This document shows positions 22,575-29,974 of a stretch of DNA of 64,000 nucleotides, piece after piece; positions within the stretch are counted from its first letter, which is position 1; every line of letters starts with the position of its first letter. The position numbers were made by a program, and so were the translations under genes. This stretch comes from Promethearchaeota archaeon (GTDB lineage: Archaea > Asgardarchaeota > Lokiarchaeia > Sigyniarchaeales > SOKP01), in contig JAEOTZ010000072.1 of assembly GCA_016839585.1 (NCBI GenBank), positions 64,001 to 128,000 of the forward strand, given 5' to 3'. The notes beneath the pieces are model-generated. The model saw nothing but the letters and a program-made list of their open reading frames with translations, had not been told where the DNA came from and did not search any database.

Positions 22575-23207
22575 ATGGATTTTGAAAAATTAACGGAACT
22601 TATAATTGAATTAGAAGTGGATGATATTGCTGATGCAGTAAAGGAAGCATTGGATGAGGAAAAAGATCCTTTTGATGTTTTGAATGCATTAACTAAGGGA
22701 ATGGATGAAGTTGGGCGTCGATATGAAGAAAAAGATTATTATTTAACCGAATTGGTACTAGCGGGAGAAACTATGAAGGAGGCTTTTACTATTTTAAAAC
22801 CAGCTTTAGCTGCTGTCGATAAATCACAAGAGAAAGTTAAAATAATCATTGGTACCGTAAAGGGGGATAATCATGATATTGGTAAAAATATATTAGGATC
22901 ATTGCTCTTGAGCTCTGGTTTTGAAATTTATGACCTTGGAATGGATGTTGATGAAAAAGCAATTGTTGAGAAGGTTAAAGAAACAGGAGCAACTATTATT
23001 GGATTAAGCTCCCTTCTTACGATGACTGTTGAACACATTAAAACTGTCCATGAAGCTTTGGTTGATGCTGGGCTCCGTGATAAAGTTAAATTAATTGTTG
23101 GGGGCGCTCCTTTAAATATGGAACTTGCTAAAAGACTTGGAGCTGATGATTTTGCAGATGATGCCGTGGAAGGTATAAAACATATCAAGAAGTTAGCAGG
23201 GATGTAA
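22575..23207 (+). CDS. Corrinoid (B12-binding) methyltransferase cognate protein, MtbC/MttC-like
   Basis: B12-binding_2 cap domain plus DNHDIG..I, SSLLT and VGGAP motifs. Confidence 0.92.
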   Translation: MDFEKLTELIIELEVDDIADAVKEALDEEKDPFDVLNALTKGMDEVGRRYEEKDYYLTELVLAGETMKEAFTILKPALAAVDKSQEKVKIIIGTVKGDNHDIGKNILGSLLLSSGFEIYDLGMDVDEKAIVEKVKETGATIIGLSSLLTMTVEHIKTVHEALVDAGLRDKVKLIVGGAPLNMELAKRLGADDFADDAVEGIKHIKKLAGM

Positions 23208-23477: not shown

Positions 23478-23732
23478 TTGAGTGAGAAAGATAATAACGA
23501 TGTTGAATATGATGAAGAATTAGATACACGAGGTTTATTTTGTCCAGAACCTCTTTTCGAGGTTAGGAATTTAAGTGAAACCCTTGAAGTAGGGCAATGT
23601 TTTAAAGTGATTGCTGATGATCCTGCTGCTGAGGAGGATCTTACGCGGTGGGCTAAGAGGACAGAGACACAATTAGTAGAGTTTAGAAAGGATGGGGACG
23701 ATTTAATATTTTATTTTAAAAAAGTAAAATAA
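23478..23732 (+). CDS. tusA: Sulfurtransferase TusA family protein
   Basis: LDTRGLFCPEP...ADDPAAEED; SD GGAGG upstream. Confidence 0.9.
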   Translation: MSEKDNNDVEYDEELDTRGLFCPEPLFEVRNLSETLEVGQCFKVIADDPAAEEDLTRWAKRTETQLVEFRKDGDDLIFYFKKVK

Positions 23733-23737
23733 AAGAG

Positions 23738-24109
23738 ATGAGAAAAAAAATGGAAGAAAAACATATTCTTTATGTTCAAACAAGTCATGATCCAGAAAGA
23801 CAATATAGTCCTCTTGTTTTAGCTCAAACTGCTAAGGCAATGGATATTAAAGCTACTGTTTATTACTTAGGTACTGCTTTAAGAATATTAAAACCTGGAG
23901 AGGCTGAAAAGATAAAACTTGGTGATTTTCCCAGTGTTAAAGAAATGATTGATAAAACATTAAATATGGGTATTGAAATATTAGTATGCGAAGCTTCAAA
24001 GCGAATGTTAGGTTGGGAAAAAGCGGAGCTCATTCCAGGCATTAAAATTGTAGGTGCTGCAACTTTAAATGATTTAGTCTTAGATGCTGATGCAACACAG
24101 TGGTTTTAA
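23738..24109 (+). CDS. DsrE/DsrF-like sulfur relay protein (start possibly ATG 23750)
   Basis: LAQTAKAMD...YYLG...GIEILVCEAS...VGAATL. Confidence 0.85.
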   Translation: MRKKMEEKHILYVQTSHDPERQYSPLVLAQTAKAMDIKATVYYLGTALRILKPGEAEKIKLGDFPSVKEMIDKTLNMGIEILVCEASKRMLGWEKAELIPGIKIVGAATLNDLVLDADATQWF

Positions 24110-24175: not shown

Positions 24176-25369
24176 ATGAGTATATATCTGGATTATCAAG
24201 CAGCAAAACCAGTTGATGTAAGAGTAGTTTCAGAGATGACTATATACTTTAATAACAAGTTTGCTAATCCATCTTCTTTACATTGCGATGGGGATGAAGC
24301 AACTGATGCATTAATTGAATCTCGCCAAAAAATTGCTGATTTTATTAATGCTCCAAACACATCAGATATAATTTTTACATCAAGTGCTACTGAATCAAAC
24401 AATCTAGCACTTATAGGTTCAGCAATGAGAAATAAAAAGAAAGGCAACCATATAATTATATCCGAGATTGAACATATATCCATATTAAATATCGCTAAAT
24501 ATTTGGAACGTGAAGGTTTCAAGGTTAGTAGAGTTCCCGTAGATCAATTTGGAATTATTAAACTTGAGAAGTTGGAGAAATTAATAAATGATCAGACAAT
24601 TTTAATTTCAATCTCTACTGCGAGTAATGAGGTTGGATCTCTTCAACCAATAAAAGAGATTAGTGAAATTGCGGCAAAAAAGAATGTTTTATTTCATACT
24701 GATGCTGTAGCTAGTGAAGGTGTTATTCCGATCGATGTACAAAAAGTACCGATAGATATGATGACCTTATCTTCGAATGATATTTATGGACCTAGGGGTG
24801 TCGGAGCACTTTACTTAAAAAAGGGAGTACGTATAAATCCAATAATAATAGGTGGCGGTCAAGAACGAGGATTGAGATCTGGTTCAGAAAATGTCCCTGG
24901 TATCGTAGGTTTTGCTAAAGCAGCTGAAATTATGAGAGAAGAAATTAAAACAGAAGTAATAAGGCTAAAAAGTATGAGAGACAAACTGATTCAAGAAGTA
25001 TTAAGTAGAGTTCCAAATTCGTATTTAAATGGACATCCTGAAAAACGACTTCCTAATAATGCACATTTTAGATTTGATTATATTGAAGGAGAATCATTAA
25101 TATTATCTTTAAAAGATCAAAAAGTAGCTGCTGCCACGGGTTCTGCATGTTCATCAAAGACCTTAGAACCATCTCATACATTAATTTCAATGGGTTTATT
25201 ACATGAAGAGGCTCATGGCAGTTTATTATTCACATTAGGCAGGTTTACAAAAGAAGCTGATCTTGATAAAGCAATAGAAGTTTTACCTGGAATTGTTAAA
25301 CGTTTACGATTATTATCCCCTTTAACGCCTCCTGAATTAATAAAAAAGTATAATGAGGTGAATGATTAG
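24176..25369 (+). CDS. iscS: IscS/NifS-family protein with Asp in place of the PLP Schiff-base Lys
   Basis: ANPSS.H, FTSSATESNN, HTDAVA, SSNDIYGPRG (canonical S.HK.YGPKG), RSGSEN, GSACSS. Confidence 0.92.
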   Translation: MSIYLDYQAAKPVDVRVVSEMTIYFNNKFANPSSLHCDGDEATDALIESRQKIADFINAPNTSDIIFTSSATESNNLALIGSAMRNKKKGNHIIISEIEHISILNIAKYLEREGFKVSRVPVDQFGIIKLEKLEKLINDQTILISISTASNEVGSLQPIKEISEIAAKKNVLFHTDAVASEGVIPIDVQKVPIDMMTLSSNDIYGPRGVGALYLKKGVRINPIIIGGGQERGLRSGSENVPGIVGFAKAAEIMREEIKTEVIRLKSMRDKLIQEVLSRVPNSYLNGHPEKRLPNNAHFRFDYIEGESLILSLKDQKVAAATGSACSSKTLEPSHTLISMGLLHEEAHGSLLFTLGRFTKEADLDKAIEVLPGIVKRLRLLSPLTPPELIKKYNEVND

Positions 25370-26168
25370 AATGAAATCTACACAATATACTGAAAAAGTG
25401 TTAGACCATTTTAGAAATCCAAGAAATGTTGGAGTAATAGAAAAACCAGATGGGTATGGTAAAGTTGGAAATCCTGTTTGTGGAGATTTAATGGAAATCT
25501 TCATTAAAGTGGGTAAAAATGATTCTGGAGAAGAAGTAATTGATGATGTTAAATTTAGAACTTTTGGATGCGGGTCTGCAGTGGCTACATCCTCAATGGT
25601 AACTACAATGGCTAAAGGGATGAAAGTTGATGATGCTTATAAAATAACTCGAAATGATGTTGCTGATGAGTTAGAAGGATTACCCCCAATAAAGATGCAT
25701 TGTTCAAACTTAGCGGCTGATGCCTTAAAAGCGGCTATAGATAATTATAGAACCAAATCAGACCCTTATGTCGAAATTGAGGCTAGAGCTTGCTCAGTAC
25801 CGGATATTAAAATAATTCTTGGTGAGGATGAGTTTCTTGGAAAAGGAGTTTATAAGAAAGTTGATGATTTGTCTGAATTTAATGGAAAAAGAGTTTTAGT
25901 GGTAGATACTGGAGATAAATCCTTAGAGCTTGCGATGAAATTAACTAAACATACTGGGAGAGTTGTAGTATTAACTTCTGCTAAAACTACACCTGGTTCA
26001 GAAGAATTAAAGAAAAAATTGAAACTATCAGATGTTAAAATCTTACACGAATCAGAGTTATTAGAAATTCAAGGTACTGATGATGTTGAAAAAGTAATAA
26101 TTCAAGATTTTGATGAAGATGAAAAATATGAATTATTCGTTGATACAGTCATCATACTTGAAGTTTAA
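25362..26168 (+). CDS. iscU: IscU/NifU scaffold fused to a degenerate thioredoxin-reductase NAD(P)H-domain (start probably ATG 25371)
   Basis: YTEKVLDHFRNPRNVG, GNPVCGD, FGCGSA, KMHCSNL; C-terminal GEDEFLGKGV...KRVLVV. Confidence 0.9.
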   Translation: MIRMKSTQYTEKVLDHFRNPRNVGVIEKPDGYGKVGNPVCGDLMEIFIKVGKNDSGEEVIDDVKFRTFGCGSAVATSSMVTTMAKGMKVDDAYKITRNDVADELEGLPPIKMHCSNLAADALKAAIDNYRTKSDPYVEIEARACSVPDIKIILGEDEFLGKGVYKKVDDLSEFNGKRVLVVDTGDKSLELAMKLTKHTGRVVVLTSAKTTPGSEELKKKLKLSDVKILHESELLEIQGTDDVEKVIIQDFDEDEKYELFVDTVIILEV

Positions 26169-26377: not shown

Positions 26378-28771
26378 ATGGATCGAGAGAGAATTGTAAT
26401 TGTTGGTGGAGTTGCTGGAGGAGCCTCTGCGGCAGCAAGGTTAAGGAGATTACGAGAGGATTTAGAAATTGTCATGTTAGATAAAGGTCCGTATGTTAGT
26501 TTTGCCAACTGCGGGCTTCCATATTATGTGGGAAATGTAATAAAGGATCGCGAGTCTTTAGAACTAGTCTCACCAGAGATGTTCCTAGAAAGGTTCAATA
26601 TTGATGTTAGAGTTAATAATGAAGTAATTTCAATAGATAAAGAGAAAAAGCAAGTCAAAGTCAGAGATTTAAAAAAATTGTACGAATACTTCTTAGATTA
26701 TGATAACTTGATTTTAGCAACTGGCTCAAATCCTATTGTACCTTCTTTTAATGGTCTTGAGGATGTACCATATTTTACAGTATGGTCTATACCCGATGCT
26801 GTAAAAATTAGAGATTATGTTGAAAAACATAATATAAAGAATGCTGTTATCGTTGGTGGTGGCTTTATTGGATTAGAAATGGCAGAAAACTTAGTTGAGA
26901 AGAGAGTGAAAGTAAAAATAGTGGAAATGCTAGATCAGGTAATGCCACCAATAGATAAGGAAATAGCGCAATTTATTCATCAAGAATTAATATTAAATGG
27001 AGTTTGTCTCGTTTTAGAAGATCCCGTAGATTCCTTTGGAAGAACTGAAGCTGGCCAACCTTTTGTTAAAACCAAAAGTGGTCGTGTTATAGAAACAGAT
27101 CTGATAATTTTATCAATAGGTATTAGACCAGAAAGTAAGTTGGCTAAAGAAGCAGATTTAGAATTAACAGAAAGAGGTTATATAAAGGTTAATCGTAGAA
27201 TGTTAGCATCTGATCCCAGTATTTATGCTGTTGGAGATACTATTCAAGTTCAGCATTATCAAACAAATCAACCAATATCTATAGCCTTAGCAGGTCCAGC
27301 AAATAAACAAGGGAGAATTGCGGCAGAAAATGTTGCCGGAAGAAATTTAGAATATAAAGGAATTTTGGGAGCATCTGTAGTTAAAATTTTTGATGTCACT
27401 GTTGCTTCTGCAGGTTTAACAGAAAAACAACTAAAAAATACCACTATTAAATATGAAAAAATATATGTACATCCAAACAATCATGCTGGTTACTATCCAG
27501 GAGCTATACCAATAACGATTAAATTAATTTTCGAAGTACCTAGTGGTAAAGTTCTTGGAGCTCAGGCTGTTGGAGGTCAAGGTACAGAAAAAAGAATTGA
27601 TGTCATCTCTACTGTAATTAAGTTTGGTGGGACAGTTTTTGACTTGGAAGAATTAGAGTTAACTTATGCTCCTCCGTATGGTTCTGCAAAAGATCCAGTA
27701 AATATGGCAGGATTTGTTGCGGCAAATTATCTTAGAGAAGATATGCCTATTTGGCATTGGCATGATATTAATGAAGTTAAAACTAATGGAGGTATATTAT
27801 TAGATGTTAGAACCAAAGAAGAATATGCAGCTAGAACCATCGAGGACTCAATGAACGTACCAATTGAAGAATTAAGAAAACGATTAAGTGAAATACCTAA
27901 TAATGGGCCAATCTACGTCTATTGCGAAGTAGGATATAGAAGTTATTTAGCTACTAGGATTCTTTTACAAAGTGGATTTAAAGAAGTCTATGAATTAACC
28001 GGAGGATTTAAAATTTTTGAAATGGCAAATGCTACCACAGAAGAAATAATGGCTGCATGTGGAGGATCCGAAAACGTTATCGAGGAATTTGTACATGAAA
28101 AAGCTATTGAAACAGATAATTATGTAGAAGTTGATGCTTGTGGATTATCCTGTCCAGGACCTCTCAATGTGTTAATCAAATCACTTGATACATTACCTGA
28201 AAATAAAAAATTAAAAATCTATGCTACTGACCCAGGATTTAAATCTAGTGTTGAAGCCTATTCTAAATTAAATGAAGCTGTAAAATTATTACATCTTGGA
28301 AAAGAAGAAGGGAAGTTAGTAGCTACTTTAGAAAAAGTCCAGCCCACTATAGAAGTTATACCTACTGTTAGAAAGAAAACTAGAAAGGAATTAAGACCTC
28401 CTGATGCACCTCCGATTTCAGATATTAATGTTGATGAATTATATGAACGAATTGATACTGAAGATGAGCCAGTACTCTTAATTGATGTCAGAACCTCACA
28501 GGAATTTTATGGTTCAGGGGGTCATATAAAGAATTCCAAGTTAATTCCCTTAGGAGAATTATTAAATAATACAGATGTCATAAAAGATTATAAGAATGAA
28601 GAAATAGTTGTGATTTGTCATTCCGGGTCTCGCTCTATGATGGCAGCTCAATTGTTAGCACAGGCAGGATTCAAGGACGTTAGAAACCTCTTAGGGGGAA
28701 TAATGATATGGCACCGAAAAGGTTATCCCGTAAAGTTAGAAGAAGAAAGAATGGCAGGAACATTTTATTGA
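26378..28771 (+). CDS. CoA-disulfide/persulfide reductase fusion: CoADR-rhodanese-TusA-rhodanese
   Basis: GGVAGGAS, SFANCGLPY, GGGFIGLE, YAPPY; rhodanese YCEVGYRS; TusA DACGLSCPGP; rhodanese ICHSGSRS. Confidence 0.92.
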   Translation: MDRERIVIVGGVAGGASAAARLRRLREDLEIVMLDKGPYVSFANCGLPYYVGNVIKDRESLELVSPEMFLERFNIDVRVNNEVISIDKEKKQVKVRDLKKLYEYFLDYDNLILATGSNPIVPSFNGLEDVPYFTVWSIPDAVKIRDYVEKHNIKNAVIVGGGFIGLEMAENLVEKRVKVKIVEMLDQVMPPIDKEIAQFIHQELILNGVCLVLEDPVDSFGRTEAGQPFVKTKSGRVIETDLIILSIGIRPESKLAKEADLELTERGYIKVNRRMLASDPSIYAVGDTIQVQHYQTNQPISIALAGPANKQGRIAAENVAGRNLEYKGILGASVVKIFDVTVASAGLTEKQLKNTTIKYEKIYVHPNNHAGYYPGAIPITIKLIFEVPSGKVLGAQAVGGQGTEKRIDVISTVIKFGGTVFDLEELELTYAPPYGSAKDPVNMAGFVAANYLREDMPIWHWHDINEVKTNGGILLDVRTKEEYAARTIEDSMNVPIEELRKRLSEIPNNGPIYVYCEVGYRSYLATRILLQSGFKEVYELTGGFKIFEMANATTEEIMAACGGSENVIEEFVHEKAIETDNYVEVDACGLSCPGPLNVLIKSLDTLPENKKLKIYATDPGFKSSVEAYSKLNEAVKLLHLGKEEGKLVATLEKVQPTIEVIPTVRKKTRKELRPPDAPPISDINVDELYERIDTEDEPVLLIDVRTSQEFYGSGGHIKNSKLIPLGELLNNTDVIKDYKNEEIVVICHSGSRSMMAAQLLAQAGFKDVRNLLGGIMIWHRKGYPVKLEEERMAGTFY

Positions 28772-28893: not shown

Positions 28894-29484
28894 ATGAAAG
28901 AAACTACTAAAAAATTATATACCGCATATGTTGGAGAATCACAAGCAAGAAATAGATATAATTATTTTTCTAAAATTGCGAAAAAAGAAGGATATGTATT
29001 AGTGTCTAAAATTTTTGACGAAACATCAGATCAAGAGAAGGAACATGGTAGCTGGTTTTATAAAATGCTGCAACAGTTCAAAAAGGAAGAACCCTTTGAT
29101 GAAATGAAAGTACTCCCTGATGCAGAATTTCCAACAACCCATGGAACTACAATCGAGAATTTAAAATCTGCAATTAATGGCGAAAATATGGAATGGCAAA
29201 CACTTTACCCTGATATAGTTAAGACTGCTGAAAAAGAGGGGTATCCTGACATTGCCAAAAGAGTAAGTGCAATTATAAAGGCAGAAAAACATCACTCTGA
29301 GAGATATGGTAAGCTTCTTAAGTTGGTTGGTGATGATGCCTTCTTTAAACGAGGAAAGAAGGTCGTGTGGGTCTGTATGGAATGCGGTTATGAGGTAGAA
29401 ATGGATGAATTACCAAAAGATTTCAAATGTCCATCTTGTGATCACCCTAGAGAATATTATAGAAAGAAATGTGAAGATTTTTAG
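28894..29484 (+). CDS. rbr: Rubrerythrin
   Basis: GESQARNRY, E.EH, E.HH, WVCMECGY...CPSCDHP. Confidence 0.95.
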   Translation: MKETTKKLYTAYVGESQARNRYNYFSKIAKKEGYVLVSKIFDETSDQEKEHGSWFYKMLQQFKKEEPFDEMKVLPDAEFPTTHGTTIENLKSAINGENMEWQTLYPDIVKTAEKEGYPDIAKRVSAIIKAEKHHSERYGKLLKLVGDDAFFKRGKKVVWVCMECGYEVEMDELPKDFKCPSCDHPREYYRKKCEDF

Positions 29485-29584
29485 AAAAAATTTAGTTATT
29501 TTTAATTTAAAATGAAAATCATTAAATAGAAAAATATATGTGATAAAGCACAAAATAGTTAAATCTCAAATTGGTTATTAAAAA

Positions 29585-29974
29585 ATGAAACGAAAAGATA
29601 TATATAAGTGTGAAATTTGTGGAAAAGTAATTGAGATCCTTAATCCAGCAGCACCCGAAACAATCTGTTGCGGTCAACCTATGACATTAATGGAGGAGCT
29701 TTCCAAAGATTGGAAACTAGAGAAGCATGTCCCAAAGATCACAATTGAAGGCAATAAAGTAACTGTTGATGTGGGTATTTCAATGGGAACTCCTCATCCA
29801 ATGACAATGGAACATTGGATTATGTGGGTTGAGATAATGTGCAAAGATGGTTGCTACGAAAGAAGATTTTTAAATCCTGGAGATGAGCCTAAAGCAACTT
29901 TTACTGTTGCAAATCCAGAGGGTCTCATAGCAAGGGAATATTGCAATATCCATGGATTATGGATATCTAAGTAA
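29585..29974 (+). CDS. dfx: Desulfoferrodoxin (2Fe superoxide reductase)
   Basis: YKCEICG...CCG, EKHVP, HPM..EH.I.W, YCNIHGLW. Confidence 0.95.
   Translation: MKRKDIYKCEICGKVIEILNPAAPETICCGQPMTLMEELSKDWKLEKHVPKITIEGNKVTVDVGISMGTPHPMTMEHWIMWVEIMCKDGCYERRFLNPGDEPKATFTVANPEGLIAREYCNIHGLWISK

Follow-up and report, generated by a model that had tools for sequence, protein, structure and literature searches.

Lysine-less IscS homologs encoded with IscU, TusA and DsrE in Asgard archaea

The IscS2 protein of Archaeoglobus fulgidus is the closest structurally characterized relative of the protein analyzed here, a 397-residue IscS/NifS-type protein in which aspartate takes the place of the lysine that forms the Schiff base with pyridoxal 5'-phosphate (PLP). 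The gene is located in a 64,000-nucleotide stretch, called the window below, of a Promethearchaeota archaeon genome (assembly GCA_016839585.1, contig JAEOTZ010000072.1, positions 64,001 to 128,000). Two publications describe A. fulgidus IscS as being without desulfurase activity, which is ascribed to a Lys-to-Asp change (PMC7585200), as giving a cysteine ligand to the [2Fe-2S] cluster on the D35A variant of IscU (PMC7585200, PMC8918507), and as having pyridoxamine 5'-phosphate (PMP) instead of PLP in its pocket, in the wild type and in the D199K variant alike (PMC8918507). An initial annotation of the window had noted the inactivity and the cysteine donation, in agreement with these publications. 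The sulfur source of the A. fulgidus IscS-IscU pair and the reason for PMP binding are described in a review as still open (PMC8918507). The available structures are of A. fulgidus IscS2 alone (4HVK), of its complex with IscU D35A (4EB5/4EB7), and of D199K (4R5F).

Methanosarcina acetivorans IscS1 also lacks the essential lysine and was proposed to be like that of A. fulgidus; it coexists with a catalytic IscS2, and the recombinant protein was insoluble (PMC7585200). The presence of a lysine-less and a Lys-bearing IscS in one genome is a feature that the window's genome shares with M. acetivorans. Canonical type I desulfurases, such as E. coli IscS (1P3W/3LVL), NifS, and NFS1, belong to the same fold family as the window's IscS, which has approximately 45% identity to E. 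coli IscS and shares with these enzymes the cysteine loop and the IscU partner. Overall, the data are best explained if the window encodes a non-catalytic IscS of the A. fulgidus IscS2 type that works with an IscU partner, a function that is probable by analogy with the A. fulgidus protein and with E. coli IscS mutants.

Active-site residues of the window's IscS

The window has a G+C content of 28.8% and is from a 3.45 Mb genome that is 99% complete. The iscS reading frame was uninterrupted over its full length, with a ribosome-binding site (GGAGG) 6-7 nucleotides ahead of the ATG. The protein was assigned to the class-V aminotransferase family (Pfam Aminotran_5, PF00266, E 1.7e-73, residues 3-364). 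Residue equivalence was established by pairwise alignment with IscS of E. coli K-12, which was taken from the annotated genome and contains SGHKIYGPKG, VDATQS, and GSACTS. The initial annotation had placed Asp202 at the Schiff-base lysine position, had noted HTDAVAS instead of HTDAVQ and an intact GSACSS, and had likened the protein to A. fulgidus IscS with its Lys-to-Asp change. The alignments bore this out: Asp202 aligned with E. coli Lys206, the three motifs were found at 24770-24799 (SSNDIYGPRG), 24695-24715 (HTDAVAS), and 25139-25156 (GSACSS), and the same SSND motif was present in 4EB5. The gene and the residues of interest are:

24176..25369, + strand: lysine-less IscS/NifS-type gene (397 aa, P0001), from the open reading frame, translation, Pfam, and PDB match
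24206..24208, + strand: Lys11, a clade-specific basic residue, aligned with a near-invariant threonine, E. coli Thr13
24710..24712, + strand: Ala179, aligned with E. coli Gln183, which forms a hydrogen bond to the PLP phenolate
24776..24778, + strand: Asn201, aligned with E. coli His205
24779..24781, + strand: Asp202 (codon GAT), aligned with the PLP Schiff-base lysine, E. coli Lys206
25148..25150, + strand: Cys325 in the GSACSS mobile loop, aligned with E. coli Cys328; the corresponding cysteine ligates the cluster when A. fulgidus IscS is in complex with IscU
25226..25228, + strand: Leu351, aligned with E. coli Arg354, the active-site arginine

Further equivalent pairs in the alignment (window/E. 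coli) were His100/His104, Asp176/Asp180, Thr72/Thr76, and Ser199/Ser203, and Asn155 of E. coli IscS was also kept. The mobile cysteine loop was the same length as in E. coli IscS. What is retained is thus the class-V fold family, the ring-stacking histidine, the aspartate at the pyridine nitrogen, the phosphate-binding threonine and serine, the long cysteine loop, and the IscU partner, and what is replaced is Lys206, His205, Gln183, and Arg354. Contacts to the ring and phosphate are kept and those for catalysis and substrate have been exchanged, a pattern that fits a pocket still able to bind a B6 vitamer non-covalently, as reported for PMP in the A. fulgidus protein, but not to use it on cysteine.

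Many solved IscS, NifS, and NFS1 chains matched the window's IscS over its full length in a search of the PDB. The closest was A. fulgidus IscS2 (4EB5/4EB7/4HVK; 467 bits, E 4e-139), the second match was its engineered D199K variant (4R5F), and the next distinct protein scored 342 bits. The two proteins share SSNDIYGP with its acidic residue and asparagine, D-A-x-A-S with alanine for Gln183, leucine for Arg354, the GSACSSKTL loop with its cysteine, a lysine in the N-terminal S-A-K-P segment, and a gene for an IscU partner. They differ in that A. fulgidus is a thermophilic sulfate reducer, whereas the window is from a mesophilic Asgard archaeon of marine sediment, and in their IscU partners, that of A. 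fulgidus being a chain of 153 residues in the PDB and that of the window having an additional C-terminal domain.

All of the NCBIfam scores fell below the respective cut-offs (NifS, 468 vs 530.75; IscS, 406 vs 643; IscS subfamily NF002806, 295.8 vs 304), and the NF002806 cut-off was passed by the Lys-bearing paralog in the same genome, with a score of 370. The NCBIfam search returned no lysine-less subfamily model for the window's IscS. In NCBI and JGI the orthologs carry one of the labels 'cysteine desulfurase family protein', 'cysteine desulfurase NifS', and 'Cysteine desulfurase IscS'. The initial annotation had anticipated that such a label would be in error, and with the catalytic residues replaced it is probably wrong as to activity.

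Linked substitutions and their conservation

Residues were compared across relatives in an alignment of three groups, namely the window's lysine-less clade (83 members), Lys-bearing relatives (142), and a second lysine-less group (six). The counts for the clade and for the Lys-bearing relatives, in E. coli numbering, were:

Lys206: 0/83 (Asp 74, Glu 6); 142/142
Gln183: 0/83 (Ala, Pro, or Ser 83/83); 137/142
Arg354: 0/83 (Leu 51, Val 20, others 12); 141/142
His205: 0/83 (Asn 80); His 118/142, Ser 19/142
His104: 83/83; 142/142
Asp180: 83/83; 141/142
Thr76: 83/83; 124/142 (Ser in 18)
Ser203: 83/83; 97/142
Cys328: 82/83; 140/142

Thr243 was exchanged only for serine, and a column-by-column contrast gave additional signatures of the clade: Thr12 to Ala, Thr13 to Lys or Arg, Ser323 to Ala, and Val338 to Thr. 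The same pattern was found in a separate metagenome sample of 80 IscS-like loci, in which all 12 lysine-less sequences were without Gln183 and Arg354 and kept the cysteine, and all 68 Lys-bearing sequences had the glutamine and the arginine. More than one residue has thus been lost: Gln183 is replaced by Ala, His205 by Asn, Lys206 by Asp, and Arg354 by Leu, in a linked manner, and the loss of Arg354 is the main addition to the earlier observation. In E. coli IscS the substitutions H104Q, D180G, Q183E, K206A, and C328S each kill activity and the conservative substitution R354K does not (PMC9978102). The window's IscS is thus without two residues that are individually indispensable in E. coli IscS, and the weight of the arginine loss depends on its replacement being leucine or valine. 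Since the D199K variant of the A. fulgidus protein (4R5F) still binds PMP, a single reversion of aspartate to lysine would be unlikely to restore activity, and the four linked changes offer a simple reason why D199K alone gave back no PLP aldimine.

These substitutions bear on whether the protein could still be a working cysteine desulfurase, with PLP bound either without a covalent link or via a different lysine such as Lys11. In favor of this, the nucleophilic cysteine and the His, Asp, Thr, and Ser that contact the cofactor are all retained, and a basic residue replaces the conserved threonine at position 11 in 73 members of the clade (Lys in 65), threonine being present in 130 of the 142 Lys-bearing relatives. 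However, the residue is arginine, not lysine, in eight of these members, and the second lysine-less group keeps threonine. Gln183 and Arg354 are also gone, and E. coli K206A and Q183E are inactive (PMC9978102). The A. fulgidus ortholog is itself reported to be inactive and to contain PMP rather than an aldimine, even as D199K (PMC7585200, PMC8918507). A desulfurase of this kind appears very unlikely. The A. fulgidus protein likewise has a lysine at the position equivalent to Lys11.

The nearest relatives were from Promethearchaeota (Loki-type) and other Asgard metagenome-assembled genomes (MAGs), with 66-94% identity. Among 75 lysine-less relatives, 73 from MAGs of Asgard or unclassified archaea from many studies and two on contigs filed in bacterial MAGs, position 202 was aspartate in 69 and glutamate in six and was never lysine. 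In all 75 the position of His205 was occupied by asparagine, that of Gln183 was Ala, Pro, or Ser, and the cysteine was invariant. The exchange between aspartate and glutamate at position 202 involved the codons GAT, GAC, GAA, and GAG. Pairwise dN/dS (the ratio of nonsynonymous to synonymous substitution rates) against 14 orthologs was 0.04-0.14, which indicates strong purifying selection, and contigs assembled from a further two sediment samples in the same study covered the Asp202 codon without difference. Conservation in orthologs, the dN/dS values, the contigs from other samples, and the linked positions, at which 142/142 Lys-bearing relatives differ from the clade, together indicate that the Asp202 state is conserved and selected, and is not an error or a sign of decay.

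The loss of key catalytic residues is also what would be seen in a decaying pseudogene or a sequencing or assembly artefact. Yet the frame is open over its full length under the purifying selection just described, approximately 75 MAGs share the substitutions, and the codon is identical in the other samples, so this explanation has next to no probability. Contigs from two metatranscriptome libraries of sediment matched iscS over 98 nucleotides exactly (24463-24560) and dsrE over 230 nucleotides with two differences (23781-24010). These short contigs, the iscS one being an exact match, also speak against a pseudogene; they are a weak hint of expression in situ, as carry-over of DNA is possible, and are too short to indicate an operon transcript.

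A FastTree phylogeny of 164 sequences placed the window's IscS in a starred clade (99) of 16 sequences, all of them lysine-less, with the Lys-bearing paralog from the same genome located elsewhere. The second lysine-less group, of six sequences, formed a separate starred clade. In an IQ-TREE phylogeny of 74 sequences the two lysine-less groups were supported at 97 each and lay on the same side of a weak branch (SH-aLRT 64). The trees were built from sets that did not include an A. fulgidus IscS sequence. Two independent losses of the lysine were considered and not upheld, because FastTree separates the groups and IQ-TREE weakly unites them; the trees neither demonstrate nor reject one origin. 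The window's clade no longer has the residues needed to form an aldimine and turn over cysteine, and this state is ancient and selected.

One sequence nested in the second lysine-less group (P0014) kept the His205-Lys206 pair, yet had alanine at Gln183 and leucine at Arg354, and appears to be an intermediate. A contig labeled as a bacterial MAG, Candidatus Deferrimicrobium (DATKTP010000110.1, locus L077), carried a full cluster of tusA, dsrE, iscS, and iscU with the C-terminal domain. Its IscS was the starred sister of a Helarchaeota sequence, reflecting either misbinning or recent transfer.

The gene cluster and other desulfurases in the genome

In the window, iscS is the third gene in the order tusA-dsrE-iscS-iscU, and a gene for a protein resembling coenzyme A disulfide reductase (CoADR) with rhodanese and TusA domains begins 209 nucleotides after iscU:

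23478..23732, + strand: tusA (84 aa), a sulfur carrier with a CPxP cysteine (Pfam TusA, E 1.7e-18)
23738..24109, + strand: dsrE-like gene (123 aa), a candidate sulfurtransferase (Pfam DsrE, E 2.8e-14)
25362..26168, + strand: iscU (NifU_N, E 2.3e-46), fused to a C-terminal degenerate NADPH-type domain of thioredoxin reductase (TrxR) and overlapping the iscS stop by 8 nucleotides
26378..28771, + strand: CoADR-like flavoprotein with rhodanese, TusA, and rhodanese domains (797 aa; Pfam Pyr_redox_2, Rhodanese twice, TusA)

The N-terminal domain of the IscU matched archaeal IscU 7C8M (E 2e-57) and kept the three cysteines, the aspartate, and the histidine in its CGD, GCGS, and HCS motifs. The last of these proteins matched the NCBIfam CoA-disulfide reductase model with E 4e-149, under the cut-off; its gene follows iscU at most loci of the window's family, approximately 200 nucleotides to 3.7 kb away, and the protein may belong to the sulfur relay. 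Clustering with tusA and dsrE is unlike the canonical type I systems. No hscA/hscB, fdx, or iscA gene adjoined iscS-iscU among the annotated neighbors in the window. Such an iscS-iscU pair in an anaerobic archaeon, without chaperone or carrier genes of these types, resembles the archaeal MIS system (MisS-MisU), which can use sulfide; MisS is described as a cysteine desulfurase (PMC13066941), whereas the window's member is without the catalytic residues.

The linkage of carrier genes to lysine-less iscS was found well beyond this genome. Among close loci, tusA was upstream of lysine-less iscS in 71 of 75 (the remaining four had no upstream DNA) and at 0/5 Lys-type loci, and dsrE was present at about half of the close loci and at most of the distant Asgard loci. 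In other Asgard families tusA, mostly together with dsrE, was found at 12/15 lysine-less loci versus 0/5 Lys-type loci. In the metagenome sample, tusA and/or dsrE was present at 6/12 lysine-less loci, several of which had short flanks, versus 0/68 Lys-type loci (Fisher 3e-6, although kin are not independent), usually in the order iscS-iscU-dsrE-tusA, which is unlike the Asgard order. The CPxP cysteine of TusA was invariant in 77/77 linked homologs and one DsrE cysteine in 46/46. The iscU gene adjoined lysine-less iscS in nearly all loci.

A PMP-dependent chemistry of a different kind, acting on a substrate other than an alpha-amino acid and with the cysteine loop serving a use other than in Fe-S assembly, has to be weighed against these linkages. 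Lysine-less PMP enzymes are known in the superfamily, for example the ColD dehydratase. In the window's clade the B6 pocket shows strict conservation, whereas residues that serve aldimine formation and amino-acid handling are replaced, and the acidic residue at 202, aspartate or glutamate, is conserved; PMP was found in A. fulgidus IscS (PMC8918507). The tight and overlapping linkage to iscU at nearly all loci argues against this explanation, as does the A. fulgidus IscS-IscU crystal complex, in which the cluster is ligated by the IscS cysteine (PMC8918507). No candidate substrate pathway was found among the nearby genes. On balance such chemistry is very unlikely.

The neighbors of the iscS-iscU pair were tusA, dsrE, the CoADR-rhodanese gene, and genes for a rubrerythrin and a corrinoid protein. 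The B12-binding corrinoid protein is encoded upstream (22575-23207) and the rubrerythrin downstream with a tentative desulfoferrodoxin (28894-29974), and these genes travel with the cluster at many Asgard loci. The C-terminal domain of the window's IscU, of approximately 130 residues (match at residues ~150-265), resembled the NADPH domain of TrxR and TrxR-type ferredoxin-NADP reductase (PDB, E 9e-9; NCBIfam TRX_reduct, E 4e-14) and was without a CxxC motif and without the Gly-rich loop. Families f7 and f18, like the window's own, had this domain together with lysine-less IscS; it was not found in families f3, f12, and f13 or beside Lys-type IscS.

A canonical Lys-bearing IscS, with HTDAVQ, SAHKIYGPKG, and GSACSS, was encoded on another contig of the same genome (G000:C3:75373-76482; L001, L087), and the organism thus does not lack a desulfurase. 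Both IscS copies of A. fulgidus are said to lack the lysine (reportedly Pagnier et al. 2015), and the window's genome differs in having a Lys-bearing IscS. The canonical gene was located approximately 3.4 kb from a SufB-like gene and 8 kb from a gene for a plain 120-residue IscU. There were five NifU_N-family genes in the genome, four besides the iscU of the cluster. In the window's family, lysine-less and Lys-type copies were found together in 26 of the 29 other genomes sampled. Several near-complete Asgard genomes showed the lysine-less gene as their only IscS-type gene. The possibility that such genomes have no desulfurase was rejected, as all five of those checked carried SufS-type genes with the His-Lys pair and the active-site cysteine. 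Lysine-less IscS therefore coexists with a presumably catalytic desulfurase, judged by its residues, in every genome that was looked at.

In family f13, two single-contig Asgard genomes (G012, loci L101/L195; G023, loci L102/L196) had a SufS-type gene with the His-Lys pair and RSGxxC approximately 600 nucleotides after tusA, dsrE, and lysine-less iscS; no IscU was detected at these two loci. A 406-residue class-V-like open reading frame with CSGHK elsewhere in the window's genome (G000:C19:8174-8956, L004) looks, judged by its sequence, like Sep-tRNA:Cys-tRNA synthase (SepCysS).

The presence of a catalytic paralog raises the question of a regulatory decoy, that is, a protein that binds IscU (or TusA) but hands over no sulfur, thereby throttling or redirecting the flux from the catalytic IscS. 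In favor of it, the Lys-bearing paralog and four further NifU_N-family genes are present in the genome, and in E. coli the sulfur acceptors compete for one IscS surface (PMC2854127). A pure decoy would not need the strict retention of Cys325 and its long loop (82/83), however, and the gene is encoded with its own IscU and not with the catalytic paralog. Several near-complete Asgard genomes would have no Lys-bearing IscS-type paralog to regulate. A decoy role is accordingly judged highly improbable, and residual desulfurase activity, PMP chemistry, a decoy, and a pseudogene all fit the data less well than a non-catalytic IscS of the A. fulgidus type.

Proposed function and significance

By comparison with the A. 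fulgidus protein and the E. coli mutants, the window's IscS would form no internal aldimine and would not turn over cysteine. A B6 vitamer, PMP, is probably held non-covalently as a structural ligand, and the conserved carboxylate at position 202 may pair with its amine. The A. fulgidus structures suggest that it pairs with the co-encoded IscU as an (IscS-IscU)2 complex, with Cys325 reaching across to the nascent [2Fe-2S] cluster as its fourth ligand. Sulfur would then have to come from elsewhere, and the gene linkage suggests that TusA and DsrE of the cluster deliver it as persulfide, having perhaps been charged by the CoADR-rhodanese protein encoded downstream or by the canonical IscS of the genome. 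Cys325 would be the likely persulfide acceptor, the reverse of the IscS-to-TusA transfer in E. coli, where TusA Cys19 and IscS Cys328 are approximately 4 Angstrom apart and the cysteine, being on a long flexible loop, can reach both TusA and IscU (PMC2854127). Free sulfide in sulfidic sediment is an alternative source. We tentatively propose, as a possibility that falls somewhat short of even likelihood, that lysine-less IscS does more than donate a ligand passively and is a dedicated persulfide receiver, in which sulfur passes from TusA/DsrE, loaded either from environmental sulfane sulfur via the co-encoded CoADR-rhodanese protein, which depends on NAD(P)H, or by an independent desulfurase, to Cys325 and then to IscU.

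Several points weigh against the interpretation as a whole. The inactivity of the window's IscS is extrapolated from its match to A. fulgidus IscS2 (E 4e-139, 467 bits), and the argument from the loss of arginine is weakened by the activity of E. coli R354K and depends on the presumed effect of leucine or valine at that position. The whole B6-binding cup is retained, which could mean that some cofactor-dependent activity remains. For the TusA/DsrE route the evidence consists of gene linkage, and two lysine-less loci in the metagenome sample with full 4-kb flanks had no carrier gene. With Lys-bearing IscS or SufS-type enzymes present, gene content does not require a cysteine-independent route. 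In addition, TusA and IscU cannot occupy E. coli IscS simultaneously (PMC2854127).

Proteins of this kind are already known from A. fulgidus IscS2 and M. acetivorans IscS1, and the picture of them is unchanged. Within the literature collection that was searched, no paper was found on lysine-less IscS in Asgard archaea or on its linkage to TusA and DsrE. The unusual IscS-IscU pair of A. fulgidus is not a one-off, and its Asgard counterparts almost always occur at loci that also encode sulfur carriers, TusA and DsrE. The substitutions provide a simple rule for correcting desulfurase annotations from sequence, namely absence of Lys206, Gln183, and Arg354 with Cys328 kept, and the carrier linkage is a concrete and testable lead on the route of sulfur. 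If lysine-less IscS is indeed a persulfide receiver, it would represent a distinct route of Fe-S assembly, cysteine-independent at the scaffold and with a wide distribution among Asgard archaea and other anaerobes, and the question of the sulfur source of A. fulgidus-type IscS-IscU would be answered.

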